From UHGV virus genome UHGV-0126275: a DNA stretch of 43,021 nt. One strand, 5' to 3'. Origin of the DNA: a virus. How positions within the stretch are numbered: the first letter of the stretch is position 1; every line of letters starts with the position of its first letter. Below, in pieces: positions 6,867-35,679 of the stretch. The notes below the pieces were generated by a model. It was not told the origin of the DNA, made no database searches, and worked only from the letters and a program-made list of their open reading frames with translations. The translations under genes were made by a program, and so were the position numbers.

Positions 6867-6970
6867 TATCTATTCGTACCTCAAAGGTAATAAAAAACCA
6901 AATCTGGTTGATCTTTTTTTTGTGTCAGCACAAAATGACCGTAATCCCAATACTAATAACAGGGCTTACC

Positions 6971-7171
6971 ATGGAAATCATTACACGTATTGATGCCGCA
7001 AAGCGCGGACTTAAACGCTACTACACCGGAAAACCATGTAAGCATGGACATGACAGTGAACGCTGGGTTTACAACGGACACTGTGTTGAGTGCACCATGG
7101 AATCAAACCGTCGCATCAGGGCAGAGATTAAGCAGATCATGATTAATTCCTCCCCACAACACTCAAGCTGA
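6971..7171 (+). CDS. Hypothetical Cys/His-rich (zinc-binding?) small protein
   Basis: Start taken at 'MEIITRIDAAKRGLKRYYTGKPCKHGHDSERWVYNGHCVEC'; near-operator site gTACCtcaaaGGTAA at 6876..6890 upstream. Confidence 0.45.
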   Translation: MEIITRIDAAKRGLKRYYTGKPCKHGHDSERWVYNGHCVECTMESNRRIRAEIKQIMINSSPQHSS

Positions 7172-7186
7172 TAGCGGAGATTAATC

Positions 7187-8020
7187 ATGAGCAGACATGC
7201 AACAGATTGGGCCTGGGAGACAGATCCAGGTAGCTCATCATTAAAGCTCATACTGCTCTCGATGGCTGACAGAGCCGATGAATATAACCTCTGCTACCCC
7301 AGCATAGAACGCCTCGTTAAAGACACTTGCCTGAATAAAAAAACCGTGCAGGCCGGGCTTATATCGCTCATGAAAATGGGGCTTATTTCAGATACCGGAG
7401 AGAGAAAGGGAGCGACAAAAAGAGTGCGGGTTTTCTCTCTTAATATAACCAAAAACGGGAACATTAAAGGCAACCGGGAGGGGGGCAATGAACCCGAAAA
7501 CGGTAATGTTACCGAAAACGGGAATATACCCAAAAACGGGATGTTGAATGATCCCAAAAACGGGATGTTGAATGATCCCAAAAACGGGATCCAGAACCAG
7601 TCATATAACCAGTCATTTAACCAAGAGAGGGAGAGCAGGACAAAAACCGGGGATTCTGTTCCTCATGACCCCGGCGCAAACAACGCCGTGATGAATAACT
7701 TTGTTCCTCCTGGTGGGCCAGGGCAATTAGGCAAATTTGTCATGCATGAACAATGGCAGCCATCAGATGACTTTCTTCGGAAAAGCTCATTGCAGGGAAT
7801 CTACCTGGACAGTCTGCCAACGGCACAGGAACTTGCAGAGTTCAGAATTTACTGGATGGCTGAGGGTAAGGCATACCATCAGGCACAGTGGGAGCAGAAG
7901 CTGGCAAGGCGCATCCAGTTCTGTAGACAGAAATCAGGTGAAGTCAGAAAGAGCCTTGACTGGCATAACACTGACTGGATAGATGAGGTGTGGGATGAAA
8001 TCAACTCCAGAACTTCTTAA
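7187..8020 (+). CDS. Replication initiator (lambda O-like), with origin iterons inside the coding sequence
   Basis: N-terminal winged-helix-like region; central low-complexity 'NGN...PKNGMLNDPKNGMLNDPKNG' encoded by the tandem DNA repeats; immediately upstream of a P-like gene. Confidence 0.65.
   Translation: MSRHATDWAWETDPGSSSLKLILLSMADRADEYNLCYPSIERLVKDTCLNKKTVQAGLISLMKMGLISDTGERKGATKRVRVFSLNITKNGNIKGNREGGNEPENGNVTENGNIPKNGMLNDPKNGMLNDPKNGIQNQSYNQSFNQERESRTKTGDSVPHDPGANNAVMNNFVPPGGPGQLGKFVMHEQWQPSDDFLRKSSLQGIYLDSLPTAQELAEFRIYWMAEGKAYHQAQWEQKLARRIQFCRQKSGEVRKSLDWHNTDWIDEVWDEINSRTS
7449..7620. repeat. Iteron array (candidate origin of replication): six CCNAAAACGGGA-type repeats, including two perfect 24-bp tandem units, then AACCAGTCAT x2
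   Basis: Repeat starts at 7449, 7493, 7511, 7529, 7553, 7577; 24-bp unit cccaaaaacgggatgttgaatgat at 7529..7552 and 7553..7576. Confidence 0.7.
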
Positions 8021-8777
8021 TGAGTACGATCGCTTTCGTGGTGGGCATGACCACTCGACGGCGGTTGCTTCTGCTGACGATGAAAGGGCAAAGAAGGAGC
8101 AGGTTGCAAGAATTTTCAACGAAATGTTTGTCCAGTTACAGGCTGCATTTCCAGGCAGCATCGCTGCTATCAGCGAGCAAGGAAAGCTAAACGAATTTCG
8201 AAAACAATGGATGCTTGCGTTTCTGGAGAATGGGATCACAACAATGGAACAGGTTAACGCTGGTATGCGCCACGCCCGCGCCAGTGAGTCTCCGTTCTGG
8301 CCGTCGCCAGGGCAATTCATCAAGTGGTGTAAAGACAGCAAGATGGTTCTTGGCGTCACCATTGACGATGTGATGGCGGAGTTTCACCGGTACAGCAAGG
8401 AAAAAAGTTTATATCCTGGTGGTCCCGAAAGATTCCCGTGGCGACATCCGGTTATGTACTGGGTCGTATGTGATACCCGCCGTGCAATGTATCAGCGCCA
8501 GCTTAGCGAGATTGAGGTTGAGAAACACGCGTGCAGGCTGCTCGATGATTGGGCGAAAAAGGTAGCTTCCGGACAGCAGATACCCGATCCGGTGATCAGC
8601 ATACAGGCAAAGCGAGAGCCCATGAGTACACCTCCGGATACAGGGAGAGACGTTTACCATCCACCAGGGCGAAGTTTCGGGTGCATGCCTAACGCCGCCA
8701 CCCTGGGGGGAATAACACCGGCGCAGTGGCTGATGGAGGAATACAGGCGGGGAAAGGCGGCAGGATTTATCAAGTAA
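7995..8777 (+). CDS. P: Replication protein P-like (DnaB helicase loader)
   Basis: 'LNEFRKQWMLAFLENGITTMEQVNAGMRHARASESPFWPSPGQFIKWCKD' closely matches my recollection of lambda P; start taken at 'MKSTPELL' with GAGGTG upstream. Confidence 0.7.
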   Translation: MKSTPELLNEYDRFRGGHDHSTAVASADDERAKKEQVARIFNEMFVQLQAAFPGSIAAISEQGKLNEFRKQWMLAFLENGITTMEQVNAGMRHARASESPFWPSPGQFIKWCKDSKMVLGVTIDDVMAEFHRYSKEKSLYPGGPERFPWRHPVMYWVVCDTRRAMYQRQLSEIEVEKHACRLLDDWAKKVASGQQIPDPVISIQAKREPMSTPPDTGRDVYHPPGRSFGCMPNAATLGGITPAQWLMEEYRRGKAAGFIK

Positions 8778-8782
8778 TACCA

Positions 8783-8803
8783 GCGCGATAGCGCATTTTT
8801 TTA
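8783..8803 (+). terminator. Rho-independent terminator after the P-like gene
   Basis: GCGC-GATA-GCGC hairpin followed by TTTTTTT. Confidence 0.55.
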
Positions 8804-8814
8804 CGTTTCAATGA

Positions 8815-8891
8815 TTACCTGGCGGGTAATAAAATATTCTAAAATCTATTGATTTCGTGTCTTATGTGGTTTTTAATTACCTTAGAGGTAA
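8815..8891. promoter_or_regulatory. Promoter (TTGATT-N17-TTTAAT) bracketed by two TTACC-N5-GGTAA palindromes (8815..8829, 8877..8891)
   Basis: Same geometry as the left operator pair: distal site upstream of the -35, proximal site over the -10/start. Confidence 0.55.
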
Positions 8892-8894
8892 ATC

Positions 8895-9239
8895 ATGAAA
8901 AAACAGATACAGGCTCTTGGTCGACTCAAAACAGGCCAGATGAACAAAACTGAATCTGCGTATTGCCAGCACCTTGAGCTGCGTAAACGTGCAGGGGAAA
9001 TCGCCTGGTATCGATTCGAGGGTATCAAGCTGCGGTTAGCTGACAACACGTTCTATACGCCAGATTTCGCTGTGATGCTCGCCACCGGAGAGATGGAACT
9101 GCACGAAGTGAAAGGTTTCTGGACCGACGACGCCAGGGTGAAAACCAAAGTCGCCGCAGATCAGTATCCGTTCCGAATCATCGGGGTAACGGTTAAACCA
9201 AAGAAAGCAGGTGGTGGCTGGAACATCGAAGAGTTCTGA
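8895..9239 (+). CDS. DUF1064-like putative PD-(D/E)xK nuclease
   Basis: 114 aa; 'FYTPDFAV...ELHEVKG' resembles a D...ExK nuclease core. Confidence 0.5.
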   Translation: MKKQIQALGRLKTGQMNKTESAYCQHLELRKRAGEIAWYRFEGIKLRLADNTFYTPDFAVMLATGEMELHEVKGFWTDDARVKTKVAADQYPFRIIGVTVKPKKAGGGWNIEEF

Positions 9240-9300
9240 ATCGACGATCTTTTTAGTTATCAATGTAATCAATAAGTTATGTGGATAAGCGAGGGTAAAG

Positions 9301-9840
9301 ATGAAACCGAGTTATGAAGAACTTGAAGAGCAACTGAACAGATCTCGACGTCTCTGTGATGCTGCTCTGGCTAATGAGCGGGCATGGGAAACAGCCATGA
9401 TGCAGGCATGCGGTGAAGACGGTCCGAAGTCAGTAGCTGATAAGTTTGCGGAACTTGAAGCCAGATGCGCGGCGCTGGCGGCGGAGAGTGCGCTGGCTCG
9501 TAAAGCAGTTCAGGCATTTTGCGATGTTGTTGGCGACAGCACCGAGGTTATCTGCGAGGAGATTGGGCGAGATGGCGTTCTGGTTATTTTGGAGGCAATG
9601 AAGGCAACAGGAAATATGCCAGCCACCGACGCTTTCCTGGCTGAAGTTCGGGCGCAGGGGGTGGATGCTGCTATAGAAGCTGCAAAAAATCTGGTGGCCC
9701 AAGAATATGAGTATAAGGATTTCAAAGCGGCGCAGAGTGATTGCTGTATGCACCCTGGTTCAGACCTGGTAGGGAAGGTTGAAATGACTGAGTGGTTAGT
9801 TGACTTTGCTGCCCAGCTTCGCAAAGGAGGCAACCAGTGA
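9301..9840 (+). CDS. Hypothetical protein (nin-like region)
   Basis: 179-aa ORF with GAGGG RBS; no confident motif. Confidence 0.5.
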   Translation: MKPSYEELEEQLNRSRRLCDAALANERAWETAMMQACGEDGPKSVADKFAELEARCAALAAESALARKAVQAFCDVVGDSTEVICEEIGRDGVLVILEAMKATGNMPATDAFLAEVRAQGVDAAIEAAKNLVAQEYEYKDFKAAQSDCCMHPGSDLVGKVEMTEWLVDFAAQLRKGGNQ

Positions 9841-10136
9841 CTGTATGTCTTATTGATAAACGTCGACGCGGGCAACAAATACCATCTGTTGAAATGCCGA
9901 ATCACACATGGTTTTGCGTACTTGATATCGATGGTATGGATACGTTGGTTGACACTCGTCATTACTGCGATACCGCAACAGCTACTCCGGCGAAAGCAAA
10001 GAAAATGGCTGCTCTGATAGAAAACTGGACTCCACCTGATGGTTGGTGCAATGGGAATGATCGAGATTGGCACGAAAAAATGAAGGGCTATATCTGCGAT
10101 TTTTTACGTAAATGCAACGGCTTCAGGGTGATGTGA
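9837..10136 (+). CDS. Hypothetical protein
   Basis: ORF overlapping its neighbours by 4 bp (translational coupling). Confidence 0.45.
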   Translation: MTVCLIDKRRRGQQIPSVEMPNHTWFCVLDIDGMDTLVDTRHYCDTATATPAKAKKMAALIENWTPPDGWCNGNDRDWHEKMKGYICDFLRKCNGFRVM

Positions 10137-10137
10137 T

Positions 10138-10770
10138 ATGACCAAAATTAACTATCAGGCACTGCGTGAGGCGGCAGAACGTGCAATTCCGGCAATGGAA
10201 CGCCTGTTAATGTTGCCAGTTGATGATGATCTGATAAGCGAACAGGAACTTAAAGATTACGGTGTGGATATTGATGCGCTCAACGCCTTCAAATTTCTGG
10301 CCGGACCAGAAACCGTGCTGGCACTGCTGGATGAACGGGAAAGAAACCAGCAATACATCAAACGCCGTGACCAGGAGAACGAGGATATTGCGCTAACGGT
10401 AGGGAAGCTGAGAGTTGAGCTTGAGGAAGCAAAATCAAAACTCAACGAGCAGCGTGAGTATTACGAAGGTGTTATCTCGGATGGAAGTAAGCGCATAGCA
10501 GAACTGGAAGCGCGGGAAATAAAACCAGCCAAAGGTGAAGTTCTGGTCGTTGTATCTGGTTTTACTGGTTGCGGAAAAAGCGCCATTGCCGGGGAAATAG
10601 AAATCGCGATGAAGGCTATTGGTGTATCGGTTAAGTGGACTAATGGCGATGCAGAAAAGCGCATGACTGGCGCTGACTGGCTGACTGCGATTGAGATGTA
10701 CAAACCAACTGTGCGCATCGTGGAAGTTAATGTGCCCCGCGCCGCTGGCATTGGCGTGAAGGGGGAATGA
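10138..10770 (+). CDS. Ead/Ea22-like prophage protein
   Basis: N-terminus 'MTKINYQALREAAERAIPAMERL' resembles the Ea22-like family as I recall it. Confidence 0.55.
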   Translation: MTKINYQALREAAERAIPAMERLLMLPVDDDLISEQELKDYGVDIDALNAFKFLAGPETVLALLDERERNQQYIKRRDQENEDIALTVGKLRVELEEAKSKLNEQREYYEGVISDGSKRIAELEAREIKPAKGEVLVVVSGFTGCGKSAIAGEIEIAMKAIGVSVKWTNGDAEKRMTGADWLTAIEMYKPTVRIVEVNVPRAAGIGVKGE

Positions 10771-11126
10771 GTATGGCTTTTGTATCAATCATAACTGGTG
10801 GCAGAGGTCGCAAGCGTGACACGGCAGGAATATCCGTTAAATATTCAAAATCAGGATCTGTGCAGTGCTATATCGGAGTTGATGTCAGATCGAACAGTCG
10901 ATTTATTTTCGTTGAGTTGGATGAGGAAAACAGGCAGATCAGGGTGATGCCAACCTCGGATGAAAAGGGTGCAAAGATGACTGGTGCAAGCGGAGGGACA
11001 TTCTCAGTAACTAAAAAGTTTGGGGATGTGGTTATACCTTTAGGACATAAAAAAGCTTTCATCGAGCTGGAAAAAAATGCTGATGGTTGGTGGTACGGTA
11101 AATATCAAGAAGGGGATACGGCATGA
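10767..11126 (+). CDS. Hypothetical protein
   Basis: ORF in operon with 4-bp overlaps. Confidence 0.45.
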   Translation: MSMAFVSIITGGRGRKRDTAGISVKYSKSGSVQCYIGVDVRSNSRFIFVELDEENRQIRVMPTSDEKGAKMTGASGGTFSVTKKFGDVVIPLGHKKAFIELEKNADGWWYGKYQEGDTA

Positions 11127-12022
11127 TCACTATTACTAAAGAGCGACTGCTGACAATCAAGCAGTGGCGCGAAACATACGGACCTGATAGCAACGTTGTA
11201 CTGCCAGCAGAAGAAGCGGAAGAACTGGCACGAATTGCTCTGGCATCGCTGGAAGCAGAGCCGATAGGTTTCCGTTGCAGGCGCAATGATAACCTTGGTG
11301 ATTGGAGTTACGTATATCATCGAGAGCCAGATGATTTTGAGCGCAAACATTTAGTGATAGAGGGCATTTACGCCGCCCCTCCAGCACCGGTAGTGCCTGA
11401 AGAAGCAACTCCGGAAAACGTAGAAATGCTCTCTGGCTATGTTTCAACGTACAAATTAACCGATAGCGAGCGCGATATTGCTGCCGAAATATGGAACGCC
11501 TGCCGCGCCGCCATGCTTCAGTCCGGAAACTTTTGGGAAAACAAGAATTCGTCAACCAATAATTTTCGGGAAATCGCGGAAACGTCAACCAACTATCCGG
11601 CAATTCCTAGTGAGGTGTTGTCCGCAATCCTGAAGGTTGCCAGGATTCGTGCCGATTTCGATGATTTTGACGGTGACAGGCGAGGTATCGGTGATTGTCT
11701 GGATGAGGCTGAGCAAGAGCTTATCGTTACCATTAACAAATATGCCAGTCAGTTGGCAGCAGAACCTATAGCGCCTAATGACGTTCGAGAGCAGACAGCC
11801 ATTCCACAAGTTCCGGTAACTCCGGATAGTTGGATAAGCTGTAGTGAGCGAATGCCGGATGACGGGCAGGAAGTTGTTGTTCAAACTCATTCAGGGTGGC
11901 GTTACATCGCATTCTACGAATCCCACTCTGGATTGTTCTATGACAGTCCTGAGGGTGATGTCGAGTATGTTCTCGTAACTCACTGGATGCCACTACCAGA
12001 ACCGCCGCAGGAGGTGAAGTGA
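11123..12022 (+). CDS. Hypothetical protein with DUF551-like C-terminal domain
   Basis: C-terminus 'SWISCSERMPDDGQEVVVQTHSGWRYIAFY...THWMPLPEPP' resembles DUF551. Confidence 0.55.
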   Translation: MITITKERLLTIKQWRETYGPDSNVVLPAEEAEELARIALASLEAEPIGFRCRRNDNLGDWSYVYHREPDDFERKHLVIEGIYAAPPAPVVPEEATPENVEMLSGYVSTYKLTDSERDIAAEIWNACRAAMLQSGNFWENKNSSTNNFREIAETSTNYPAIPSEVLSAILKVARIRADFDDFDGDRRGIGDCLDEAEQELIVTINKYASQLAAEPIAPNDVREQTAIPQVPVTPDSWISCSERMPDDGQEVVVQTHSGWRYIAFYESHSGLFYDSPEGDVEYVLVTHWMPLPEPPQEVK

Positions 12023-12306
12023 TGGACTCCTTCGCGAAATATACGATTATTGACTGGATAGCCTTCCTTCAGGTTTTGCTCATCTGGTTTTATATGGCTT
12101 ACAGGAGTGGACAGTGGATTGTCAGTATAGCCTGTAGCAAGGGATGGCGTTGGTGGAACCGGAAGAATAAAAAAGCACTGGCATTGGATTCGTTTTACGA
12201 AGCATTCAATCTTAACAGCCTTCAGCCTGGTTCTGTCATTGTAGTCACCACTCAAAGCGGCATGACGATACAAATTCACAAGCCAAAGGAGGAAGGTCGT
12301 GGCTAA
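12019..12306 (+). CDS. Hypothetical small membrane protein
   Basis: Hydrophobic N-terminal segment; operon context. Confidence 0.4.
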   Translation: MMDSFAKYTIIDWIAFLQVLLIWFYMAYRSGQWIVSIACSKGWRWWNRKNKKALALDSFYEAFNLNSLQPGSVIVVTTQSGMTIQIHKPKEEGRG

Positions 12307-12580
12307 CCTGCAACTTGCCGTTAAAGGTGAATACTTCGATGCCATGATTCGCGGGGAGAAAACGGAAGAGTATCGCCTGTGTAATGACTACTGGAAAAAG
12401 CGCCTCGTTAACCGTAAGTATGACCGCCTGATTATCACAAAGGGATATCCGAAGCGCGACGATTCCAGCCGTAGAATTGATGTTCCGTATGACGGATATG
12501 AAATCAAGACAATCACACATCCGCACTTCGGCGATAAACCGGTAAAGGTGTTCGCGATAAAGGTGAATATTGATGGCTAA
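12299..12580 (+). CDS. Hypothetical protein (possibly ASCH/PUA-like fold)
   Basis: 93-aa ORF in operon; weak family recollection only. Confidence 0.4.
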   Translation: MANLQLAVKGEYFDAMIRGEKTEEYRLCNDYWKKRLVNRKYDRLIITKGYPKRDDSSRRIDVPYDGYEIKTITHPHFGDKPVKVFAIKVNIDG

Positions 12581-12911
12581 ATCAGCAGCAGAGCGCAAAG
12601 CCGCTCAGAGAGCCAGACAAGCTGCATCTGGTGTGCGTAAGCTGGAGATTGTGCTTGATGCTCAGGAAATTGAAATGCTGGAGCGTAACTGTGCCACACG
12701 TCGCCCCGGGCGTGCGCCTTACGAATTTGGTGAGTATATAGCATTACTGATCCGCCAGGATGATGCGCGCGTGCACGGGCGTATAAAATCGATCAGCAGA
12801 AAACGTTGCGGTAAGTGCGGCGAGAGAGTTCCTGTGAATTCATGCCCGTGTAATGGTGACTCGCAATGCTGGGTGACTAAAGGCTGGCATGAAACGAAAT
12901 TAATATTGTGA
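12570..12911 (+). CDS. Hypothetical protein with Cys-rich C-terminus
   Basis: 113 aa; 'CGKCGERVPVNSCPCNGDSQC'; stop codon lies inside the 12-bp palindrome. Confidence 0.45.
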   Translation: MMAKSAAERKAAQRARQAASGVRKLEIVLDAQEIEMLERNCATRRPGRAPYEFGEYIALLIRQDDARVHGRIKSISRKRCGKCGERVPVNSCPCNGDSQCWVTKGWHETKLIL

Positions 12912-12960
12912 CATGTCACGAGTGGGTTATGCATGATGAATTTGATGGGTTTTGAATACT

Positions 12961-12987
12961 GCCGCCAACTATGGCGGCTTTATTTTG
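12961..12987 (+). terminator. Rho-independent terminator between the early/nin region and the packaging genes
   Basis: GCCGCCA-ACTA-TGGCGGC followed by TTTATTTTG. Confidence 0.65.
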
Positions 12988-12997
12988 CATGGTACTA

Positions 12998-13012
12998 TTA
13001 CCACAACGGTAA
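12998..13012. promoter_or_regulatory. TTACC-N5-GGTAA palindrome upstream of terS
   Basis: TTACCacaacGGTAA, preceded by TACTAT (-10-like) and followed by an extra TTACC half-site. Confidence 0.5.
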
Positions 13013-13029
13013 CTATTACCACGGTGGTT

Positions 13030-13629
13030 ATGATGCCTGCTGAACCTAAAACCTATAAACGCAAATCAACGCAATTTAAGCCACTAACAGCAATGCAGGA
13101 GGCTTATTGCCAGTCATACATCAAAACGCCTGAAAACCAGACTCAGGCAGCGATTAACGCAGGATTCTCCCCAAATACAGCGGCAGTTAAAGCCAGTGTC
13201 ATGATGCGCGATGAACGCATTCAAAAACGGATTGCCGAGTTGATGGAGGAGCGCAACAAACGAATGCGCGTCAGTGCTGATTACGTTCTCATGCGCCTGG
13301 TGGAGATCGACCAGATGGACGTGATTGACATTCTCAACGACGATATGAGCATCAAGCCGGTCTCGGAATGGCCTAAGGTCTGGCGGCAGTACCTGACAGG
13401 TTTCGAACTGGCCGACATGTTCGAAGGCCGTGGAGACGAGAAAGAGCTGGTTGGCATCCTCAAAAAAATTAAATGGCCTGACAAGGTGAAGAACCTCGAA
13501 CTGATTGGTAAGCACGTCGACGTCAACGCATTCAAAGAACGCCTGGATGTTAATGTGAATGTGACAATTGCTGATCGCATAGCGGCAGCCAGGAAGAGAC
13601 TGAAAGAACGTCAGGATGGCAATCAGTGA
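13030..13629 (+). CDS. terS: Terminase small subunit
   Basis: 'LTAMQEAYCQSYIKTPENQTQAAINAGFSPNTAAVKA' HTH-type TerS N-terminus; sits directly upstream of terL with overlap; start chosen downstream of the terminator. Confidence 0.7.
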   Translation: MMPAEPKTYKRKSTQFKPLTAMQEAYCQSYIKTPENQTQAAINAGFSPNTAAVKASVMMRDERIQKRIAELMEERNKRMRVSADYVLMRLVEIDQMDVIDILNDDMSIKPVSEWPKVWRQYLTGFELADMFEGRGDEKELVGILKKIKWPDKVKNLELIGKHVDVNAFKERLDVNVNVTIADRIAAARKRLKERQDGNQ

Positions 13630-15101: not shown

Positions 15102-15149
15102 TCCGCTGGTGGGGATAATGTCGTTGATATCCTCTGATGAGGATAAAAC

Positions 15150-15759: not shown

Positions 15760-15836
15760 TGGCGTGGCATGCAGGATTCGAACCTGCGACCAACCGCTTA
15801 GAAGGCGGTTGCTCTGTCCAACTGAGCTAATGCCAC
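15760..15836 (-). tRNA. tRNA-Arg (anticodon UCU), phage-encoded, argU-like
   Basis: Reverse complement folds as a cloverleaf: acceptor GTGGCAT/ATGCCAC, D-arm GCTC-AGTTGGACA-GAGC, anticodon stem ACCGC/GCGGT with loop CTTCTAA, T-arm GCAGG-TTCGAAT-CCTGC, encoded CCA end. Confidence 0.9.
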
Positions 15837-16158: not shown

Positions 16159-16173
16159 TTACCTGAAAGGTAA
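16159..16173. promoter_or_regulatory. TTACC-N5-GGTAA palindrome upstream of the head-gene block
   Basis: TTACCtgaaaGGTAA, about 90 nt upstream of the ORF at 16264. Confidence 0.5.
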
Positions 16174-16263
16174 TAATTTGTGCGTTAAATGTCAACCACC
16201 TACGATAAATAAATCATATGTGGTTAAATTGGTAATAATTTAATTGCGTACGGAGTCATTGAT

Positions 16264-19163: not shown

Positions 19164-20156
19164 ATGACAATGGCTGTTAAAGGCTTAACTGCGCTGACGC
19201 TGGCTGACTGGGGTAAGCGCGTCGATCCAAACGGGAAAGTCGATAAGATTATCGAGCTTCTCGGTCAAACTAACCCGATCCTTCAGGATATGCCTTTTGT
19301 CGAAGGGAACCTTCCTACCGGACACCGAACCACCATTCGTTCTGGTTTACCTTCAGCTACCTGGCGTTTGCTGAACTATGGCGTACAGCCAAGCAAATCA
19401 ACCACAGTGCAGGTAACCGATTCCGTGGGCATGCTGGAAACCTATGCTGAAGTCGATAAGTCACTGGCTGATCTGAACGGCAATACCGCCGAATTCCGCC
19501 TTTCTGAAGACCGCGCATTTATTGAAGCGATGAATCAGCAGATGGCGCAGACGCTGTTTTATGGTGATTCCAGCGTTAACCCTCAGCAGTTTATGGGACT
19601 GTCCTCCCGCTATTCCAGCCTGTCTGCGGGTAATGCTCAGAACATCATTGATGCTGGTGGCACGGGTACAGATAACACCTCAATCTGGTTAGTGGTGTGG
19701 GGCGAAAACACCGTGCATGGCATCTTCCCGAAAGGGCAGAAGGCTGGCATCCAGATGGAAGATAAAGGCCAGGTGACACTGGAAGATGCTAATGGCGGCA
19801 AGTACGAAGGCTATCGCACCCATTACAAATGGGATAACGGACTTGCTCTGCGTGACTGGCGTTATGTTGTTCGCATTGCAAACATCGATGTCAGCAATAT
19901 TTCAGAACCATCCTCTGCCGCAAATATTGCGAAGTTGATGGTTAAAGCACTACATCGCATTCCAAACCGTGGCATGGGCCGCCCGGTGTTCTACATGAAC
20001 CGCACTGTAGGCCAGACTCTTGATCTGCAGTCTCTGGAGAAAACATCTCTGGCTATCAGCGTAAAAGAGACAGAAGGCGAGTGGTGGACTTCATTCCGTG
20101 GTGTACCAATCCGTGAAACTGATGCGATTCTGGAAACAGAAGCCCGCGTGGTGTAA
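19164..20156 (+). CDS. Major capsid protein
   Basis: 330 aa, position after the scaffold, followed by a stable hairpin. Confidence 0.75.
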   Translation: MTMAVKGLTALTLADWGKRVDPNGKVDKIIELLGQTNPILQDMPFVEGNLPTGHRTTIRSGLPSATWRLLNYGVQPSKSTTVQVTDSVGMLETYAEVDKSLADLNGNTAEFRLSEDRAFIEAMNQQMAQTLFYGDSSVNPQQFMGLSSRYSSLSAGNAQNIIDAGGTGTDNTSIWLVVWGENTVHGIFPKGQKAGIQMEDKGQVTLEDANGGKYEGYRTHYKWDNGLALRDWRYVVRIANIDVSNISEPSSAANIAKLMVKALHRIPNRGMGRPVFYMNRTVGQTLDLQSLEKTSLAISVKETEGEWWTSFRGVPIRETDAILETEARVV

Positions 20157-24588: not shown

Positions 24589-25133
24589 TGTGCGATCCGG
24601 TTATTGCTGGTGGCGCAATGCTCGCCATGAGTGGCATTCAGGCATACACCCAGTACCAACAGGGAAAGTATGCCTCGAAGGTTGCAGAAGCGAACGCAGA
24701 TATAGCCACAGCTCAGGCAAATGATGCAATAAACAGAGGTAACGCTGAAGCTGAGCAACGGCGCAGAGAGACCCGACAGCGGCTTGGTACACAGGCGGCG
24801 ACAATGGGGGCTACCGGCGCTGATTTATCTACAGGTAACGCGCTGGATATATTTGGCGACACTGCCCAGTTTGGCGCTCTTGATTCTCTGACGACGGTGA
24901 ATAACGCGCAACGCGAGGCTTACGGTTATCAGGTTCAGGCTGCCAACTATAAAGCAGAAGCCAGTTCAGCCCGTAAACAGGGGAATGTGGGAGCAGCAAC
25001 AACATTGCTCACTGCGCCTCTGAAGGCATACGGTGCGTACCAGATGTTTGGTGGGACGTGGAGTCCGTTTACTCAAAGCACCCCTGCGCCAATCGGGGCA
25101 GCAGCAGGAACCAGATTACCCGGAGGATTATAA
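24588..25133 (+). CDS. Internal virion protein-like (Ala/Gln-rich)
   Basis: 181 aa, low-complexity Ala/Gly/Gln-rich. Confidence 0.45.
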   Translation: MCDPVIAGGAMLAMSGIQAYTQYQQGKYASKVAEANADIATAQANDAINRGNAEAEQRRRETRQRLGTQAATMGATGADLSTGNALDIFGDTAQFGALDSLTTVNNAQREAYGYQVQAANYKAEASSARKQGNVGAATTLLTAPLKAYGAYQMFGGTWSPFTQSTPAPIGAAAGTRLPGGL

Positions 25134-29445: not shown

Positions 29446-29450
29446 ATTAA

Positions 29451-31925
29451 ATGAGACAGGAATGTATACAAGCGGTTCAGCAGGCGGCGCAGCGCATGTT
29501 AACGGCGCGAGAAATACAGAACATTGAAGACCGCATTTATCGAAATATGCGCTCCATTGCTCGTGATGACCCTATGTCGTGGCGACAACTTTCCGAATCA
29601 GAGCGGCTATATCGAGCAGCACAATTGGCATCTGAAGAATTACAGCGAGAAGCGGCATTAAAGAAACGTCGTGTGGCTCTCACTATAGCCGCGCGTCAGA
29701 GATTGGATAAATTTATCAATAGCTATCAAGGGGCTGATGGGAAACTTGGCGCTCTTAACCGTACTATAGCTTTTAATGCAGACGGTAAATCTAATTTCCT
29801 CTCTGTTGAATCCAGAACAAAAGCCACCCGTGATTATGCATTGAGTCAATTGCAGGAGGCATTCGAAGCAGTTGATCCTCGCTTTTTTGGTCTGTTTGAA
29901 GATGAAGCGGGCGTACGTGACCTGGTATATGAAATGCGGGGGCAAAATACTGGCAATGCTAAAGCAAGAAACGGTGCTAAGGCGTGGAGAGAAGTTACAG
30001 AGCTGCTGCGCCGCCGGTTTAATGATGCTGGTGGGGACATTGGCTATCTCGAAAACTGGGGGATCCCTCAACATCATTCTATGGAAAAGGTTGGGGCAGT
30101 ATCAAAGGATAAGTGGGTTAGCGATGTTATAGGTAAGCTGGATCGCAAATATTATATCCGAGCCGATGGACAACTGATGAACGATGCCGAGTTGTCTTCA
30201 TTTCTTGGAGAGGCTTATAACACGATCGCTACTGGTGGGCTGAATAAGCTTACTGATACCGGAATGCGAATTTCCGGCGCACGTGCTAACCGTGGTAATG
30301 CATCACGACAGATACATTTCAAAGATGCAGATTCCTATCTGCAATATCAGCAACTTTATGGCGATCGCTCTCTATGGGAAATCATGGTCTGTCACCTGGA
30401 AGGTATCAGTAAAGATATTGCACTGGTGGAAACATATGGCCCAAACCCCGATCATGTTTTCCGCTCTCTTCTTGATCAGGTGAAGGCAGAAACGGCAACA
30501 GCTAACCCGAGTAAAACCGGTAAAGTCGAGCGGCTGGCGAACAACACAGAGAATCTGTACAACTTTATTTCCGGAAAGACACAGCCTGTAGCGAATCCGC
30601 ACATCGCGCGATGGTCTGACAATATCCGCAACTGGCTGGTTGCCAGCAGACTCGGATCCGCGTTGCTGTCATCGTTCTCTGATCTTGGAACCATGTATCT
30701 GTCTGCGAAGGTTACCAACCTTCCAATGAACCAGTTATTCCGCAACCAGCTTGAAGCTATGGACCCAACGAACCGTACAGAACTTGCGCGGGCGCGCCGC
30801 GCTGGTCTGGCGATGGAATCTCTACTTGGCAGCGTTAACCGCTGGGCGATGGATAATATGGGGCCGTCAGTGTCTCGTTGGGCGGCAACGGCGGTAATGC
30901 GTGCCAGTGGGCTTACAGCATGGTCAGATGCGCACAAGCGCGCCTATGGCGTAACCATGATGGGAAGCCTGGGAGAAGTAGTGTCACGGACACCAGACCT
31001 TCGTAGCCTCGATGACTCTGATTTTCGTATCCTGAAAAGCAAAGGGATTACTGACACAGACTGGAGCGTATGGAAGCTGGCGAAACAGGAGGACTGGGGG
31101 AACGGTAATAATACGATGCTGACACCGGAAAGCATTATGCGTATCCCTGATTCAGCAGTTAAACATCTTGGTGAGCCTGAACGCGTGAAATTTGAGGCAA
31201 TGCGTAAACTGCTCGGTGCCGTAACTGAAGAAGTTGATATGGCTGTTATTACACCGGGAGCACGTGAGCAACTGATAACCGGTTCTGGTATTCAGCGTGG
31301 AACATGGAAAGGTGAATTAACGAGAAGTGTTTTCCTGTTTAAATCGTTCCCTATCTCGGTTGTTATGCGTCACTGGTCACGCGCTATGGGTATGCCGTCT
31401 GCTGGTGGGCGTGCGGCATATATTGCGACGTTTATTGCCAGTACGACCATTCTTGGCGCTTTGTCGCAGCAACTTAACGACCTTGCGTCTGGTCGTAATC
31501 CTCGAGAGATGACAGGAGAAGATGCCGCAAAATTCTGGCTTGGTGCTCTACTGAAAGGTGGTGGTCTTGGCCTTTACGGTGACTTTTTATTGTCAGATCA
31601 CACTAGGTACGGAAGCGGCGCGCTGGCGTCGATGCTTGGCCCGGTAGCTGGTCTGGTTGATGACGTAGTGAAGATTGCTCAGGGCATACCGTTAAATGCT
31701 GTGGAAGGGAAGAGTGAGCAGACTGGTGGTGATCTGGTGAAGCTGGGGAAAGGTTTGATGCCTGGTGCGAATCTCTGGTACTTGAAGGCGGCTCTCGATC
31801 ACATGATCTTTAACCAGATGCAGGAGTATTTTTCACCAGGCTATTTGCGTAAAATGGAGCAACGTTCGAAGAAAGAGTTTAACCAGACATACTGGTGGCG
31901 ACCACAGGATGTCACTCCGCAATAA
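29451..31925 (+). CDS. Large internal core / ejection protein
   Basis: 824 aa, last of three consecutive large virion genes. Confidence 0.5.
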   Translation: MRQECIQAVQQAAQRMLTAREIQNIEDRIYRNMRSIARDDPMSWRQLSESERLYRAAQLASEELQREAALKKRRVALTIAARQRLDKFINSYQGADGKLGALNRTIAFNADGKSNFLSVESRTKATRDYALSQLQEAFEAVDPRFFGLFEDEAGVRDLVYEMRGQNTGNAKARNGAKAWREVTELLRRRFNDAGGDIGYLENWGIPQHHSMEKVGAVSKDKWVSDVIGKLDRKYYIRADGQLMNDAELSSFLGEAYNTIATGGLNKLTDTGMRISGARANRGNASRQIHFKDADSYLQYQQLYGDRSLWEIMVCHLEGISKDIALVETYGPNPDHVFRSLLDQVKAETATANPSKTGKVERLANNTENLYNFISGKTQPVANPHIARWSDNIRNWLVASRLGSALLSSFSDLGTMYLSAKVTNLPMNQLFRNQLEAMDPTNRTELARARRAGLAMESLLGSVNRWAMDNMGPSVSRWAATAVMRASGLTAWSDAHKRAYGVTMMGSLGEVVSRTPDLRSLDDSDFRILKSKGITDTDWSVWKLAKQEDWGNGNNTMLTPESIMRIPDSAVKHLGEPERVKFEAMRKLLGAVTEEVDMAVITPGAREQLITGSGIQRGTWKGELTRSVFLFKSFPISVVMRHWSRAMGMPSAGGRAAYIATFIASTTILGALSQQLNDLASGRNPREMTGEDAAKFWLGALLKGGGLGLYGDFLLSDHTRYGSGALASMLGPVAGLVDDVVKIAQGIPLNAVEGKSEQTGGDLVKLGKGLMPGANLWYLKAALDHMIFNQMQEYFSPGYLRKMEQRSKKEFNQTYWWRPQDVTPQ

Positions 31926-31933
31926 AAGGAGAT

Positions 31934-32059
31934 ATGATGGTTCAAATAACTTTTATTGTACTAATATGTGCAGCGTTTTTATGCTATTCATACATTTTGA
32001 TAAAAATGGGTTTCAATTGGAATCTCTGTTGCGTGCAGCGGCATGGTTCGGCTTTGTAG
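31934..32059 (+). CDS. Small hydrophobic protein (41 aa)
   Basis: Hand-translated: MMVQITFIVLICAAFLCYSYILIKMGFNWNLCCVQRHGSAL; strong AAGGAG RBS; not in the supplied track. Confidence 0.35.
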   Translation: MMVQITFIVLICAAFLCYSYILIKMGFNWNLCCVQRHGSAL

Positions 32060-32144
32060 TATTCGGAATTGTATTGTTCGGAAGAATAATAAAATAACTA
32101 GTTAATTTGTGGATTGGTGCTGTTTTTCCATGATAGGGGTAATT

Positions 32145-32525
32145 ATGAGAAAAGTATTTTTGATTTTTGGATTTATGCTTCTCGTTGGATGCCAGTCAGC
32201 TGCACAGTTTGAAAGAAATATGCTTACGTGGCGCGGGCAGAGTATAGACGCAATGGTTCAGCAGTGGGGGTATCCTCAGGGAGAGCTTACATCTCCAGAT
32301 GGAAACAGAGTGTATGTTTACTCAAGCTCTGGTAGTTATAACGTACCACAAACCACAACGTATAATACTACGTCTAATCTAATTGGTAATACTATATATT
32401 CAAACACATACGCAACAACTGATGGCGGTTATACACTCCATTTCAGTTGCTCTGTTTACGTTGAGTTTGGTGCTGATAAGATTATTAAAAATGTTACATG
32501 GCGCGGTAATAATTGCGTTGCGTGA
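32145..32525 (+). CDS. Lipoprotein (accessory/moron gene)
   Basis: Start at 'MRKVFLIFGFMLLVGCQSA' (lipobox LVGC); stop codon embedded in the 12-bp palindrome; terminator follows. Confidence 0.6.
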   Translation: MRKVFLIFGFMLLVGCQSAAQFERNMLTWRGQSIDAMVQQWGYPQGELTSPDGNRVYVYSSSGSYNVPQTTTYNTTSNLIGNTIYSNTYATTDGGYTLHFSCSVYVEFGADKIIKNVTWRGNNCVA

Positions 32526-32534
32526 CATGTCACA

Positions 32535-32558
32535 GGCCGCTTTCGCGGCCTTGTTTTT
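32535..32558 (+). terminator. Rho-independent terminator after the lipoprotein gene
   Basis: GGCCGC-TTTC-GCGGCC followed by TTGTTTTT. Confidence 0.7.
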
Positions 32559-32597
32559 AACGAATGCCACCGCCGCCCGGGCGGGAATCCGCAGACA

Positions 32598-32621
32598 CAA
32601 AAAAGCCCGCGGCGCGGGCTT
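32598..32621 (-). terminator. Rho-independent terminator after the 211-aa gene
   Basis: On the minus strand AGCCCGC-GCC-GCGGGCT followed by TTTTTT. Confidence 0.65.
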
Positions 32622-32627
32622 AAAGAA

Positions 32628-33263
32628 CTATTTTATTGGCAGCTTATGCTTTGAAATTATGGCCAATCTGTTTTGGAAGTTTTCCGCATCACCCCACAAC
32701 CAGGTTTCACCTTTCTCAAGTTCTTCCTCGTTATTCATCTCTATAAGTTCGCATGTCATCATGTCGTAACCATAGAGATGGAGGCCAAGTTCCAGTGCGT
32801 CATACATGCGAGCCTGCCAGAACGACATGCCTTCATGAGTCTGGTTGCGATCAGACACGATGATATCGTACCGTTCCAAGAGGTAGTTCATGAAGATGAT
32901 GCCAGCGAAATCATGAAGCACAGCACGATGCTTAGGCTTCTGGGTTCTCCATACCAATATCTGCGTGACAGGACGGCAGTTAAGATAGCTGTCAGGCTGG
33001 ATAATGACACGATTGTAATACACTACCTCTTCGGTGAGGTCATTTATCAATGACAGTTCAAAGTGCGCCTGTGGAATCTCGCCTTTCTTACGATCGTCTA
33101 CACGGACAACGCGGTATCCAGGAGCCAGAGAAACGCCTTTGACATCAGATGTGACATCGTTGCCGTTCACTAACTCTGAATACAGGGCGCGGTTGTCTGG
33201 AGTTTCGTTCAGATGAGCGAAAACCTCAGTTACCTTTGCCGGATTCAGCAGTTGTTGTGGCAT
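32628..33263 (-). CDS. Hypothetical protein (211 aa), stand-alone accessory gene
   Basis: ORF with GAGGTG RBS, own candidate promoter and terminator; no recognisable motif. Confidence 0.6.
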   Translation of the reverse strand: MPQQLLNPAKVTEVFAHLNETPDNRALYSELVNGNDVTSDVKGVSLAPGYRVVRVDDRKKGEIPQAHFELSLINDLTEEVVYYNRVIIQPDSYLNCRPVTQILVWRTQKPKHRAVLHDFAGIIFMNYLLERYDIIVSDRNQTHEGMSFWQARMYDALELGLHLYGYDMMTCELIEMNNEEELEKGETWLWGDAENFQNRLAIISKHKLPIK

Positions 33264-33303
33264 ACATCACCTCATAATATATAGATGCTTCTTTAAGCGG
33301 GAT

Positions 33304-33318
33304 TTACCATTAGGGTAA
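33304..33318. promoter_or_regulatory. TTACC-N5-GGTAA palindrome in the leader of the 211-aa gene
   Basis: TTACCattagGGTAA. Confidence 0.5.
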
Positions 33319-33462
33319 ATGAACTATCCGAATGTTAAACGCCTTCGTACTCGTCAAATTTTCTCATGTGGGCTCCTCCTGTATCGGTGCCTAATCGCTA
33401 TGGATCACCCGTGAGGTAATAGTACGCTATTCACCCACAGTCTGCAATCTGTACAGAATTAT

Positions 33463-33480
33463 TTAAAGGCACATCCCTGT
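33463..33480 (-). terminator. Terminator after the Bro-N gene
   Basis: On the minus strand GGCACA-GGGA-TGTGCC followed by TTTAAATAATT. Confidence 0.5.
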
Positions 33481-33491
33481 GCCGCCGCTCG

Positions 33492-34184
33492 TCAGAAGAA
33501 CCCTGCTTTGTCGTTGATATACTCCGCGTGGGTCTGGATATCACGCAGGCATTTGCTCACACCGACGATGTAGCAGAACATGGTGGTCAGCTCCGCCGCC
33601 GCGCCCGATACGTCGTGCCCGTCGTCCTGTAACTGGTTCAGCAGATTCATCAGCAGTGAGTTCTCCGTCAGGCCGAGAACACCAGACGGCGAGTGAATCA
33701 GGCTGCGGTAGCCGGGCTTCAGCGGGGCGCTGTAGGTTTTGTTCTCTATCTTCATTGCCTGCATTACTGCTGACGCCGTGGCGTTGGCTACCTGGTCGGC
33801 AACCATCTTTATGCGTTCTTCCTGCGGGAGCGAGTTTTTAATGTAACTTCCGGTGCGGCGGATCTGAGGAAGAACCTCACCTGTAACCCATTCAAGAAAT
33901 CTGAATGCTCTCGTTCCCTCAGTCATTGCCTCTTTGCAACGCAGAATAAGGATGTAGAGACCTGATTCTGAAACGATGGATAGTTCTTGTATTCCACCAG
34001 GGGTCTGTATTGAATACAGCCCCTTTTTGTTCCAGCCTTTTTTATCAAGTTTTCTCGCTTGTGTAACATCAATATTCAAAGCATTGCACACATCTTTGGT
34101 GACAAACCAAGGTTCTCCGTCAATCATGAACATACGGATCTGGCAGGATGACTCAAAGGAAAAGATGGAAGGTTTGGTATTCAT
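33492..34184 (-). CDS. Bro-N domain protein (antirepressor-like) with C-terminal domain paralogous to the small protein at 35331..35588
   Basis: Start at 'MNTKPSIFSFESSCQIRMFMIDGEPWFVTKDVCNALNI' (Bro-N signature); AAGGTG RBS. Confidence 0.7.
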   Translation of the reverse strand: MNTKPSIFSFESSCQIRMFMIDGEPWFVTKDVCNALNIDVTQARKLDKKGWNKKGLYSIQTPGGIQELSIVSESGLYILILRCKEAMTEGTRAFRFLEWVTGEVLPQIRRTGSYIKNSLPQEERIKMVADQVANATASAVMQAMKIENKTYSAPLKPGYRSLIHSPSGVLGLTENSLLMNLLNQLQDDGHDVSGAAAELTTMFCYIVGVSKCLRDIQTHAEYINDKAGFF

Positions 34185-34451
34185 AGCGATCACCTTTGTA
34201 GTTAGGTTAATCACCACCGCTGAGACCAATCAGATGGTGGTGAACTGTGCAGAGTTGGTCTTACCGGCTACAAAGGAACCCGGCGCACCTTTCGGTGCCC
34301 CCACACAGCCCACCATAGAATAGGTGCGCTTTACACATAAAAAAACCGCTTATGCGGCATATGTGCCTCTGTAGTAATCCGGGAGACCAATCCCGGCACT
34401 GGATTTTGCCAGTGCCCGATTACTATGGCACAAGAGGAGTGCGATGTAAAT

Positions 34452-34559
34452 TTACCGCAAAGGTAATGATAAACGCGAAGAAATATTAAAATCAACCGTA
34501 TTTGGTTGATTGCGTTTAACGCTTGATCACCTGAAAGCAAGATATTACCTTTAAGGTAA
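34452..34559. promoter_or_regulatory. Two TTACC-N5-GGTAA palindromes (34452..34466, 34545..34559) in the divergent region between the Bro-N gene and the zinc-ribbon gene
   Basis: TTACCgcaaaGGTAA and TTACCtttaaGGTAA. Confidence 0.5.
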
Positions 34560-34579
34560 TGTTATTGTGAGGAAAAGCA

Positions 34580-35308
34580 ATGGAAGTTTTCTGGATAGTT
34601 GTTGGTGTGGTTGCGGTGATTATTTACGTTATCAACCAGAACAAGACTAAGATCTCTGATCGTACGGTCGTTAATCATAACAAAACGATAAAGACCGAAG
34701 ATGGGGAGATAACGATTAATCGTACACAGGTGATAGAACACACCTCTACTCAGTTTCAAAAAACTGGAGGTAATGCGCCTAATATTTCCGCACCTCCTGC
34801 TTATGATAGTGCGGTAATCCAGACATATTATAAACAGCAGGAGTTAGCAAAAGAGAGGCAACTGATTCAGCCAAAGCCGTTTACAGCTGAGCTTCCACCT
34901 GGAGTGTCAACGCGTCCGGCATATCATGGAAGATTCCCTGGTGATGACATATCGTCTCAGTCATCTAAAAAAGCACCTCAGGCAGTATCAGAGCCAGCAA
35001 GAATACCTTCTGTATCGCCGCCAAAAGAAGAATCAGCTAACAGAGTTTCAAGTGGCCGCAAGCAGTGTTTGCGATGCAGAATAAACCTTCCATATGACAA
35101 ATTCCGGAAATCGTCAAAAAATCCAGATGGATTGACTAAGTGGTGTGCAAGGTGTCTCGATGGCCCAAAGAATACACGCCATATGAAGTGGTGCCCAATT
35201 TGTAATGTCCGCAGAAAACGGACCAGCTTTTACCCTAATAATCAAAATGCGGACGGCTTAATGGCATGGTGCAAAACGTGCTGGGACGAGCACAAAGCGA
35301 AACGATAG
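34580..35308 (+). CDS. Membrane-anchored protein with tandem C-terminal CxxC-x22-CxxC zinc ribbons
   Basis: N-terminal 'VFWIVVGVVAVIIYVI' TM helix; Pro/Ser-rich linker; 'CLRC...WCARC' and 'CPIC...WCKTC' repeats each containing 'DGL'. Confidence 0.65.
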   Translation: MEVFWIVVGVVAVIIYVINQNKTKISDRTVVNHNKTIKTEDGEITINRTQVIEHTSTQFQKTGGNAPNISAPPAYDSAVIQTYYKQQELAKERQLIQPKPFTAELPPGVSTRPAYHGRFPGDDISSQSSKKAPQAVSEPARIPSVSPPKEESANRVSSGRKQCLRCRINLPYDKFRKSSKNPDGLTKWCARCLDGPKNTRHMKWCPICNVRRKRTSFYPNNQNADGLMAWCKTCWDEHKAKR

Positions 35309-35324
35309 GCCGCTCTTGCGGCCT
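35308..35324. terminator. Hairpin between the convergent zinc-ribbon and antirepressor-like genes
   Basis: GGCCGC-TCTT-GCGGCC with weak T-run. Confidence 0.45.
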
Positions 35325-35330
35325 TTAAAT

Positions 35331-35588
35331 TTACCGGGTTTGTTTTCGTAATTGTTCGGCACAATAGTCGAGATGTGTTTGCAGATCCTGCATAGACATC
35401 TGTGAGCTGGTGACGTAGTTAATCAGTGCAGTCAGTTCGGCAAGTGGGCCATCGACATTAAATCCATCCTTATCGAGATCCCGGAGTAATTTCATCAAGT
35501 GCGATCCCTCCACCAGTGACCTGACGCCTCCCGGCGTGTGAATCCTTTCGGTAAATCCGTCTTCCAGTGGATAGTGATACTGCTGCAT
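35331..35588 (-). CDS. Small antirepressor-like protein (about 85 aa), LexA-box-controlled
   Basis: Start at 'MQQYHYP' (GGAGAAG RBS); homologous to the C-terminal domain of the Bro-N protein; LexA box 22 bp upstream. Confidence 0.6.
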   Translation of the reverse strand: MQQYHYPLEDGFTERIHTPGGVRSLVEGSHLMKLLRDLDKDGFNVDGPLAELTALINYVTSSQMSMQDLQTHLDYCAEQLRKQTR

Positions 35589-35609
35589 CTTATCTTCTCC
35601 ATGCAATAA

Positions 35610-35625
35610 CTGTATGTTTATACAG
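35610..35625. promoter_or_regulatory. LexA (SOS) box CTGT-N8-ACAG
   Basis: aaCTGTatgtttatACAGta; near-consensus with AT-rich spacer, just upstream of the small antirepressor-like gene. Confidence 0.7.
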
Positions 35626-35664
35626 TAACAAATAATTTGTTTGCTATCCAGCACGTTTTGCAAA

Positions 35665-35679
35665 TTACCCGAAAGGTAA
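35665..35679. promoter_or_regulatory. TTACC-N5-GGTAA palindrome upstream of the antirepressor-like gene
   Basis: aTTACCcgaaaGGTAAt. Confidence 0.5.

Follow-up and report, generated by a model that had tools for sequence, protein, structure and literature searches.

A palindrome at the start of nearly every transcription unit of a phiV10-like Escherichia coli prophage is most likely the operator of its immunity repressor

The virus genome UHGV-0126275, analysed here over its full length of 43,021 bp (hereafter the window), carries repeated copies of the palindrome TTACC-N5-GGTAA, which form one family and stand at the start of nearly every transcription unit. Head and structural genes are 97.5% identical to those of Escherichia phage phiV10, and by sequence comparison the window is a phiV10/epsilon15-like E. 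coli prophage of the genus Uetakevirus (type member: Salmonella phage epsilon15). Most probably, the palindrome is where the phage repressor binds. The best explanation of its distribution, and in our view a probable one, is that it represents the operator of the immunity repressor Rep, with repression that would be direct at the early and accessory units and anchored at the late ones.

The window was scanned for TTACC-N5-GGTAA, with dinucleotide-preserving shuffles (n = 100) as the null. Eleven exact copies were found (starting at 5717, 5779, 6491, 8815, 8877, 12998, 16159, 33304, 34452, 34545 and 35665) against 0.01 expected, and 15 copies with at most one mismatch against 0.81 expected; neither count was equalled in any of the shuffles. 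Every coordinate given in the preliminary description of this DNA was recovered on rescanning, including the near-match at 6876 (GTACC...GGTAA), and its list could be extended by three overlooked one-mismatch copies (6539, 13016 and 33405) and by a two-mismatch copy at 6508 that resembles an OR2 site.

The gene map was curated from the list of open reading frames (ORFs) and the annotation of close relatives, and on this map 91.6% of the window is coding. Nevertheless, none of the 15 sites with up to one mismatch lies in a gene; they all fall in the non-coding part, about 8% of the window, an outcome with a probability, by simple arithmetic, of about 0.084^15 (<1e-15). Two-mismatch matches, 24 of 25 of which lie in genes, correspond to the chance background. 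The comparison of coding with intergenic copies had been set beforehand as the test that could refute the idea of a dispersed regulon, and the copies are far from equally frequent in genes; the description of the copies as intergenic and upstream of transcription units thus holds for 15 of 15 sites and for nearly every unit start. Site 12998 is intergenic only when terS is taken to start at ATG 13033, as in the annotation of epsilon15 and TL-2011b, whereas the original phiV10 annotation puts this start farther upstream. A mechanically called ORF of 69 amino acids (aa) covers site 34452, and an isrK-like RNA with its promoter occupies the same stretch. The features of the window and of the compared phages are collected in Table 1.

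Table 1 Positions of operators, promoters, genes and RNAs discussed in the text (window coordinates unless another phage is named)
Feature	Position	Strand	Remarks
Tail (AAGGTAT) of int-proximal one-mismatch site TTACCTTAAAGGTAT	1..7		Cut by window start
OL proximal operator	5717..5731		Exact; abuts -10 of leftward early promoter PL
PL	-35 TTGACA 5759-5754; -10 AATTAT 5736-5731	-	17 nt spacer; consensus scan
OL distal operator	5779..5793		Exact; 62 bp from proximal; centred about -62 relative to PL
rep, immunity repressor, 194 aa	5851..6435	-	PDB 5D50_A (SPC32H Rep), E=3.5e-42, residues 1-190
OR region, three sites	6491..6553		6491-6505 (exact), 6508-6522 (2 mismatches), 6539-6553 (1 mismatch)
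PR, TTGTTA-17-TATTAT	6536-6564	+	Rightward; consensus scan; site 6539-6553 overlaps -35 and spacer
Cro-like gene, 76 aa	6590..6820	+	PHROG 35 'transcriptional repressor'
Post-cro one-mismatch site (GTACC...GGTAA)	6876..6890		After terminator 6842-6861, before replication genes
nin operator pair	8815..8891		8815-8829 and 8877-8891, both exact; brackets nin-region promoter
nin-region promoter	TTGATT 8849-8854; TTTAAT 8872-8877	+	17 nt spacer; read by eye; conserved
Candidate zinc-binding late regulator, 113 aa	12570..12911	+	Conserved; PHROG 536 'transcriptional regulator'; lambda Q position
terS promoter	12990..13030		Extended -10-like TGgTACTAT 12990-12998, abuts exact operator 12998-13012; by eye
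Second terS site, one mismatch	13016-13030		Just before ATG 13033; covers ribosome-binding region
Solitary head-operon operator	16159..16173		Exact; 56 bp upstream of promoter block 16215-16244
211-aa gene	32628-33263	-	PHROG 1349, function unknown
Operators upstream of 211-aa gene	33304..33419		33304-33318 (exact), 33405-33419 (1 mismatch)
BroN::Ant-like gene, 245 aa	33492..34229	-	N-terminal Bro-N domain; residues 162-243 in PHROG 450
C4 antisense RNA	34233..34320	-	Rfam RF01695, 78.6 bits; tandem with isrK-like RNA
isrK-like small RNA	34339..34415	-	Rfam RF01394, 74.7 bits
Operator at leftward accessory promoter	34452..34466		Exact; abuts -10 (TATCAT 34471-34466)
Leftward accessory promoter, TTGATT-18-TATCAT	34495-34466	-	Consensus scan; would drive isrK, C4 and BroN::Ant
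Operator upstream of zinc-ribbon/endonuclease VII-like gene	34545..34559		Exact; 21 bp upstream of the gene
Zinc-ribbon/endonuclease VII-like gene	34580-35308	+	
ant, small antirepressor	35331..35588	-	PDB 5D50_E (SPC32H Ant), E=2.7e-46
LexA box AACTGTATGTTTATACAGTA	35608..35627		Near-consensus; ant promoter region; conserved in 6/6 aligned genomes
Solitary tailspike operator	35665..35679		Exact; between ant and tailspike gene; 44 bp upstream of block 35709-35735
Late-promoter motif CATATATGGTT upstream of lysis genes	39139..39149	+	Without Rep operator in the window
PseuP_224 repressor locus	10906-11820 of PseuP_224		Rep-like N-terminal domain
pOW20-A repressor locus	8762-9706 of pOW20-A		Rep-like N-terminal domain
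epsilon15 annotated repressor sites	12-27; 2931-2947; 19895-19911		Before terS; before head operon; gp19/tail fibre gene
epsilon15 annotated repressor sites, continued	32479/32554/32616; 35906-35922		OL; before nin-like genes

Copies of the palindrome are present far above chance in the relatives as well: 8 exact and 6 one-mismatch copies in phiV10, and 11 exact copies in epsilon15, 10 in TL-2011b, 10 in SPC32H, 10 in the Klebsiella prophage ST11-OXA245phi3.2 and 9 in Enterobacter phage Tyrion. They occupy shared slots. Two or three sites lie on the left of rep and two or three on its right, and a single site follows the cro-like gene. The nin-like genes are preceded by a pair, terS by one or two sites, and the head operon and int by one each; a further copy lies between ant and the tailspike gene, and the lysis genes, too, usually have one upstream. 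Sixty exact sites from the compared genomes (48 distinct 25-mers) yield the consensus A-TTACC-WNWWA-GGTAA-T. The motif is a perfect palindrome, and its half-site centres are 10 bp, or one helical turn, apart. When ten orthologous slots were aligned in up to seven genomes, 4 of 100 columns proved variable in the arms, 40 of 50 in the spacers and 133 of 200 in the flanks, and the few changes in the arms (TCACC..GGTAA, TTACC..GGTGA, GTACC..GGTAA) were never compensated. By this alignment the arms are under strong purifying selection, and the pattern of conservation indicates a sequence-specific dimeric DNA-binding protein, with an operator specificity that is apparently common to the Uetakeviruses of E. 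coli, Salmonella, Klebsiella and Enterobacter.

Two scans of the viral contigs of IMG/VR, with Rep and with a Rep alignment, showed that at least 226 contigs encode a relative of Rep. The 80 loci that were kept, with Reps 99-100% identical, are too uniform for covariation and usable for spacing statistics: they contain 66 distinct 15-mers beside a nearly identical Rep, and 147 of 150 close site pairs are spaced by exactly 62 bp.

Rep is composed of an N-terminal helix-turn-helix (HTH) domain, a middle HTH_3-like domain and a C-terminal region for tetramerisation and Ant binding; its family matches (Pfam HTH_3, PHROG transcriptional regulator) are confined to HTH_3/XRE-type families. The gene is flanked by the two densest clusters of sites, the left (OL) and right (OR) operators, whose copies of the motif are identical to the dispersed ones. 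Between the phages of E. coli, Salmonella and Klebsiella, Rep is only 43-44% identical over its whole length and about 54% within the first 70 residues, and NLVNRW, the recognition helix, does not vary in an alignment with the Reps of epsilon15, SPC32H and the Klebsiella phage, where overall identity is 43%. The most likely binder of the motif is the N-terminal domain of Rep, since the sites flank rep in the classical way, the NLVNRW helix is invariant despite the divergence of Rep, distant homologues of this domain adjoin related palindromes, and the RefSeq record of epsilon15 labels the orthologous sites as repressor sites.

The distant homologues were found by tblastn of the N-terminal domain of Rep against phage genomes and belong to unrelated lambdoid phages. 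Pseudomonas phage PseuP_224 (39% identity) has four copies of TTACC-N4-GGTAA flanking its repressor gene, Psychrobacter phage pOW20-A has five copies of ATACC-N5-GGTAT in the same position, and Hafnia phage yong2 has a single GTACC-N5-GGTAC copy at its repressor gene. In PseuP_224 and pOW20-A, both of which have an annotated Q-like antiterminator, the palindromes are found only to either side of the repressor gene. Together with Rep, these two repressors make up a small natural series that links DNA-binding domain to half-site. A full-text search of the literature for ATTACC/GGTAAT operators in prophages returned nothing relevant.

The matches of Rep and of the small antirepressor Ant to the SPC32H proteins, along with the LexA box upstream of ant (Table 1), argue that the prophage carries a Rep/Ant/LexA lytic switch of the SPC32H type, with ant presumably under LexA control. 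Ant aligns nearly unchanged to SPC32H Ant, and the reported Ant-binding part of Rep is only about 39% identical; the DNA-binding domain of Rep (54% identical) and its operator are better conserved than its antirepressor interface. The Cro-like protein encoded to the right of OR, with 58-84% identity across genera and an invariant AGTTSHYIQxHLTG segment, is better conserved than Rep, and may act on the same operators, like the Cro of lambda.

The relation of sites to promoters points to direct repression at the early units. At OL, the last base of the -10 element of PL is also where the proximal operator starts, and the nin-region promoter is bracketed by a second pair of operators. As had been noticed in the preliminary description, the pair at 8815 and 8877 copies the geometry of the left operator pair, both being 62 bp apart from start to start; this spacing (63 bp once), together with the nin promoter, is conserved in seven of seven genomes. 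The nin promoter falls below the consensus threshold of the promoter scan. The three sites of OR have the same layout as in epsilon15, where they are spaced by 17 and 30 bp, and the GTACC variant of the post-cro site is kept in phiV10 and Tyrion. Direct repression seems plausible at only five promoters: PL, PR, nin, terS and the leftward promoter at 34466-34495. A further site would lie near int: the start of the window, AAGGTATACTCTC, is identical to positions 143-155 of TL-2011b, and the int-proximal site is found upstream of int, at about 57 bp from it, in TL-2011b, phiV10, epsilon15, SPC32H and Tyrion, which suggests that int is also under Rep control.

The accessory modules at the right of the window carry operators of their own. 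The site that abuts the leftward promoter at 34466-34495 would control the isrK-like RNA, the C4 RNA and the BroN::Ant-like gene, and the sequence map would thus place a second antirepressor module of the prophage under Rep control. For the zinc-ribbon/endonuclease VII-like gene behind the operator at 34545, no promoter was identified. PHROG 450, which contains the C-terminus of BroN::Ant, is the family of the small SPC32H-type Ant as well, so the prophage encodes two Ant-domain proteins, one behind a LexA box and the other behind a Rep operator. The operator-bearing accessory modules are common to TL-2011b, while phiV10 has different ones, and such cassettes seem to travel with their own operators. 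The map would tie the 211-aa protein, the zinc-ribbon nuclease-like protein and BroN::Ant, behind isrK/C4, to the lysogenic switch.

At the late operons the operators are solitary and precede blocks of conserved sequence at a distance. The head-operon block CATATGTGGTTAAATTGGTAATAATTTAAT (16215-16244) is 100% conserved in the E. coli, Salmonella and Klebsiella phages, and the operator itself forms the left edge of the stretch conserved between phages at this operon. Related blocks beginning CATATRTGGTT occur at 35709-35735, for the tailspike gene, and from 39139 onward, for the lysis genes. In every genome the operator stands at a fixed distance from the block (head 56 bp, tailspike 44 bp, lysis 47 bp), although the intervening sequence diverges. 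All late blocks match the sigma-70 consensus poorly and were not reported by the promoter scan; the head and tailspike blocks have a GGTAAT half-site at the -10 region. In the relatives the lysis operator is exact (epsilon15) or has one mismatch (phiV10, SPC32H, Tyrion) and is located 47 bp upstream of the motif. The lysis upstream region of the window (38904-39209) differs from those of phiV10, epsilon15 and SPC32H, and the operator of those phages has been lost; its -10 region reads TACTAT, versus TATGAT or TATAAT in the relatives.

The CATATRTGGTT motif and a Cys-rich protein encoded in the 'Q position' suggest that a second layer controls the late genes. The motif marks the head, tailspike and lysis promoters in seven of seven genomes (in the window at 16215-16244, 35709-35735 and 39139-39159). 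The protein of 12570-12911 has a basic N-terminus and a C-terminal cluster of cysteines (C80, C83, C92, C94, C100); it had no match in Pfam, NCBIfam or the PDB sequences, and the quality of a single-sequence AlphaFold model was too low for it to be used (mean pLDDT 44). CATATRTGGTT is palindromic in part (AACCA-N4-TGGTT); after the post-cro site there is a perfect palindrome, AACCAAATCTGGTT (6896-6909). Treated as a palindrome with two mismatches, AACCA-N4-TGGTT is weakly enriched in the window (34 copies against 19 expected); in epsilon15 there are 22 against 16 expected, a count reached by 9 of 100 shuffles, and the motif was kept only as a phylogenetic footprint.

The mechanism of repression by Rep has not been extensively characterised (PMC9986798). 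SPC32H Rep binds palindromic sites as a tetramer, in which the DNA-binding pairs come from different dimers (PMC9638917), and Rep has a p53-like tetramerisation domain of the kind found in DNA-looping regulators, with two pairs of MDD domains about 100 Å apart (PMC9986798). When the identical repressor of ZX5 was overexpressed, transcripts of endolysin and holin fell by over 99.9% (PMC9782041). In the mechanism we propose, each half-site would be read by one N-terminal HTH domain of Rep, and one tetramer would clamp two operators, as Rep is reported to be tetrameric with two DNA-binding units. In the 62-bp pairs at PL and nin, the proximal operator abuts the -10 element and the distal one is 62 bp upstream, a geometry in which the tetramer would bracket the promoter. 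In the lysogen, the PL, PR, nin, terS and isrK/C4/BroN::Ant units would probably be silenced directly. For the head and tailspike operons, Rep on the solitary operator would most likely act as an anchored auxiliary site, looping to the GGTAAT half-site or to other operators, and late expression probably needs a further factor. Induction could follow the SPC32H route, in which cleavage of LexA would derepress the small Ant, and Ant would strip Rep from all operators at once.

Several observations weigh against this reading. The centres of the head and tailspike operators, and of the lysis operators of the relatives, lie roughly 67-79 bp before the inferred start, too far from the core promoter for simple occlusion to apply, and not all of the spacings between operator and promoter (44, 47 and 56 bp) share a helical phase. 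Even when three mismatches are allowed, no operator is present at the lysis operon of the window, and direct control therefore does not extend to every unit. The consensus promoter scan gave no excess of promoter-like sites over shuffled sequence, and the promoters of nin, terS, head and tailspike escaped it; these were read by eye, those of nin and terS from conserved alignments. Moreover, the Cro-like protein, with its invariant HTH segment, could be the relevant binder at some of the sites. The original proposal that one regulator silences many units directly has good support for the early and accessory units, and is only partly supported for the late ones.

The geometry of the late operons would fit a different use of the solitary copies, namely that Rep represses where an operator overlaps the -10 element, and that the solitary late copies are lytic activator sites for the Cro-like or another phage protein, acting in the manner of phi29 p4 and replacing Q. 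In its favour are the centring of these operators at about -67 to -79, the constancy of their distances in seven genomes despite the diverging sequence, the late blocks that are fully conserved yet poor as sigma-70 promoters, and the high conservation of the Cro-like protein with its HTH segment. A further point for it is that no Q-like protein family was recognised among the ORFs of the nin region; the preliminary description had also stated that no Q-type antiterminator is evident. However, binding of the motif by the Cro-like protein is only predicted, the CATATRTGGTT motif and the Cys-rich protein of 12570-12911 are equally good candidates for late activation, the lysis promoter of the window works without any operator, and the authors of the epsilon15 record assigned the sites to the repressor; we consider this explanation quite improbable. 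A combined version, in which one operator has two position-dependent uses without Q, repressing at the -10 element, with the 62-bp pairs held by one Rep tetramer in a micro-loop around the promoter, and serving in its solitary late copies both as anchor of Rep loops and as activator site for the Cro-like protein, would have a somewhat better chance, and is still unlikely.

The dispersed copies could also be roadblocks or insulators at operon boundaries, where Rep would stop read-through polymerase as at the stoperators of L5. Sites do occur just downstream of terminators, 6876 after 6842-6861 and 12998 after the terminator at 12961-12978, which precedes the terS promoter region, and a conserved GC hairpin with a T-run lies just upstream of 8815. 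On the other hand, the sites are palindromic and at promoters rather than within operons, five units show overlap or abutment with a -10 or -35 element, and L5 stoperators are asymmetric and orientation-dependent. Roadblocking and control of initiation are compatible with each other, and as the main role of the copies the former appears very unlikely. We give hardly any credence to the idea that the palindrome is not a protein site at all, and is instead an RNA hairpin, a scar of recombination or of a mobile repeat, or a product of chance and composition in AT-rich intergenic DNA. The 15-mer can form a hairpin of 4-5 bp and the intergenic DNA is indeed AT-rich, but the hairpin is weak (-2.6 to -3.9 kcal/mol) and changes in its arms are uncompensated; sequence and not pairing is conserved across four host genera. 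Chance gives 0.01 copies in shuffles against the 11 found, and flanks and spacers that differ between copies speak against a larger repeat element.

A regulon of dispersed operators of Rep, although described at the outset as unusual, is an already known design. The record of epsilon15 (NC_004775.2 / AY150271) marks 'protein_bind, repressor, lysogeny' at scattered sites, all of which are TTACC-N5-GGTAA, and our finding is therefore a rediscovery, in a phiV10-type prophage, of a feature that the annotation of the type phage has contained since 2007. The window shares with epsilon15 the genus, the 15-17 bp motif and its slots. It differs in that Rep is only 43% identical overall, in the lack of the lysis-operon operator that epsilon15 has at 24704, and in the additional operator-bearing accessory modules at 33304/33405 and 34452/34545; the epsilon15 annotation omits some copies, namely OR, the second nin site and the lysis site. 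The epsilon15/SPC32H Rep system is represented in the window by a Rep homologue, by ATTACC-N5-GGTAAT flanking rep, by copies in the syntenic slots at terS, the head operon, ant/tail fibre and the nin region, and by an Ant with a LexA box. SPC32H (PDB 5D4Z, 5D50) has a homologous Rep, a near-identical Ant, a LexA box upstream of ant and the motif at the same slots, whereas its Rep has only about 43% identity and the published work, as far as checked, deals with the inactivation of Rep and not with a genome-wide operator map.

Dispersed operators are classical for the repressors P1 C1, L5 gp71 and that of phiC31. In P1, a single repressor acts on operators scattered before many operons, including Op51 before the immI c4-icd-ant operon, and the window has the same order of operator, C4 and BroN::Ant gene, an analogy of layout only. 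The operators of the unrelated C1 protein are, however, asymmetric 17-mers and not palindromes, and the late genes of P1 are controlled through the C1-repressed activator Lpa rather than by operators at each late operon. The stoperators of L5 and Bxb1 and the inverted repeats of phiC31 likewise amount to tens of dispersed repressor sites, mostly in short intergenic regions. L5 sites act on elongation, depending on their orientation, while those of the window are palindromes at promoters and operon starts, and the repressor families and hosts (Actinobacteria) of L5 and phiC31 are unrelated. The lambda-type phages PseuP_224 and pOW20-A resemble the window in the N-terminal HTH domain of the repressor (about 39% identity) and in having TACC-type half-sites on either side of its gene. 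Their sites, however, are restricted to OL and OR (4 and 5 copies), the C-terminus of their repressors is of the S24-peptidase type or CI-like, and they have a Q-like antiterminator, whereas in the Uetakevirus group the sites are spread over the entire genome. The two-operator design of lambda does not apply to the window, where at least 10 sites lie outside OL and OR.

Some refinements may be new to the literature: the conserved 62-bp bracket, the fixed distances from operator to late promoter, the series of DNA-binding domains and half-sites, the specificity shared in four host genera, and the operator-bearing C4/isrK/BroN::Ant and accessory modules. The analysis provides an exact map of the operators of a podovirus prophage that is among the commonest in E. 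coli. From this map it is predicted that a single Ant-triggered event would free many promoters at once and that one operator specificity would be common to the Uetakeviruses of four host genera, both of which are relevant to the induction of prophages in O157 and other pathogenic E. coli. Besides the features described above, a gene for tRNA-Arg (anticodon TCT) lies on the minus strand at 15760-15836, between terL and the head operon.

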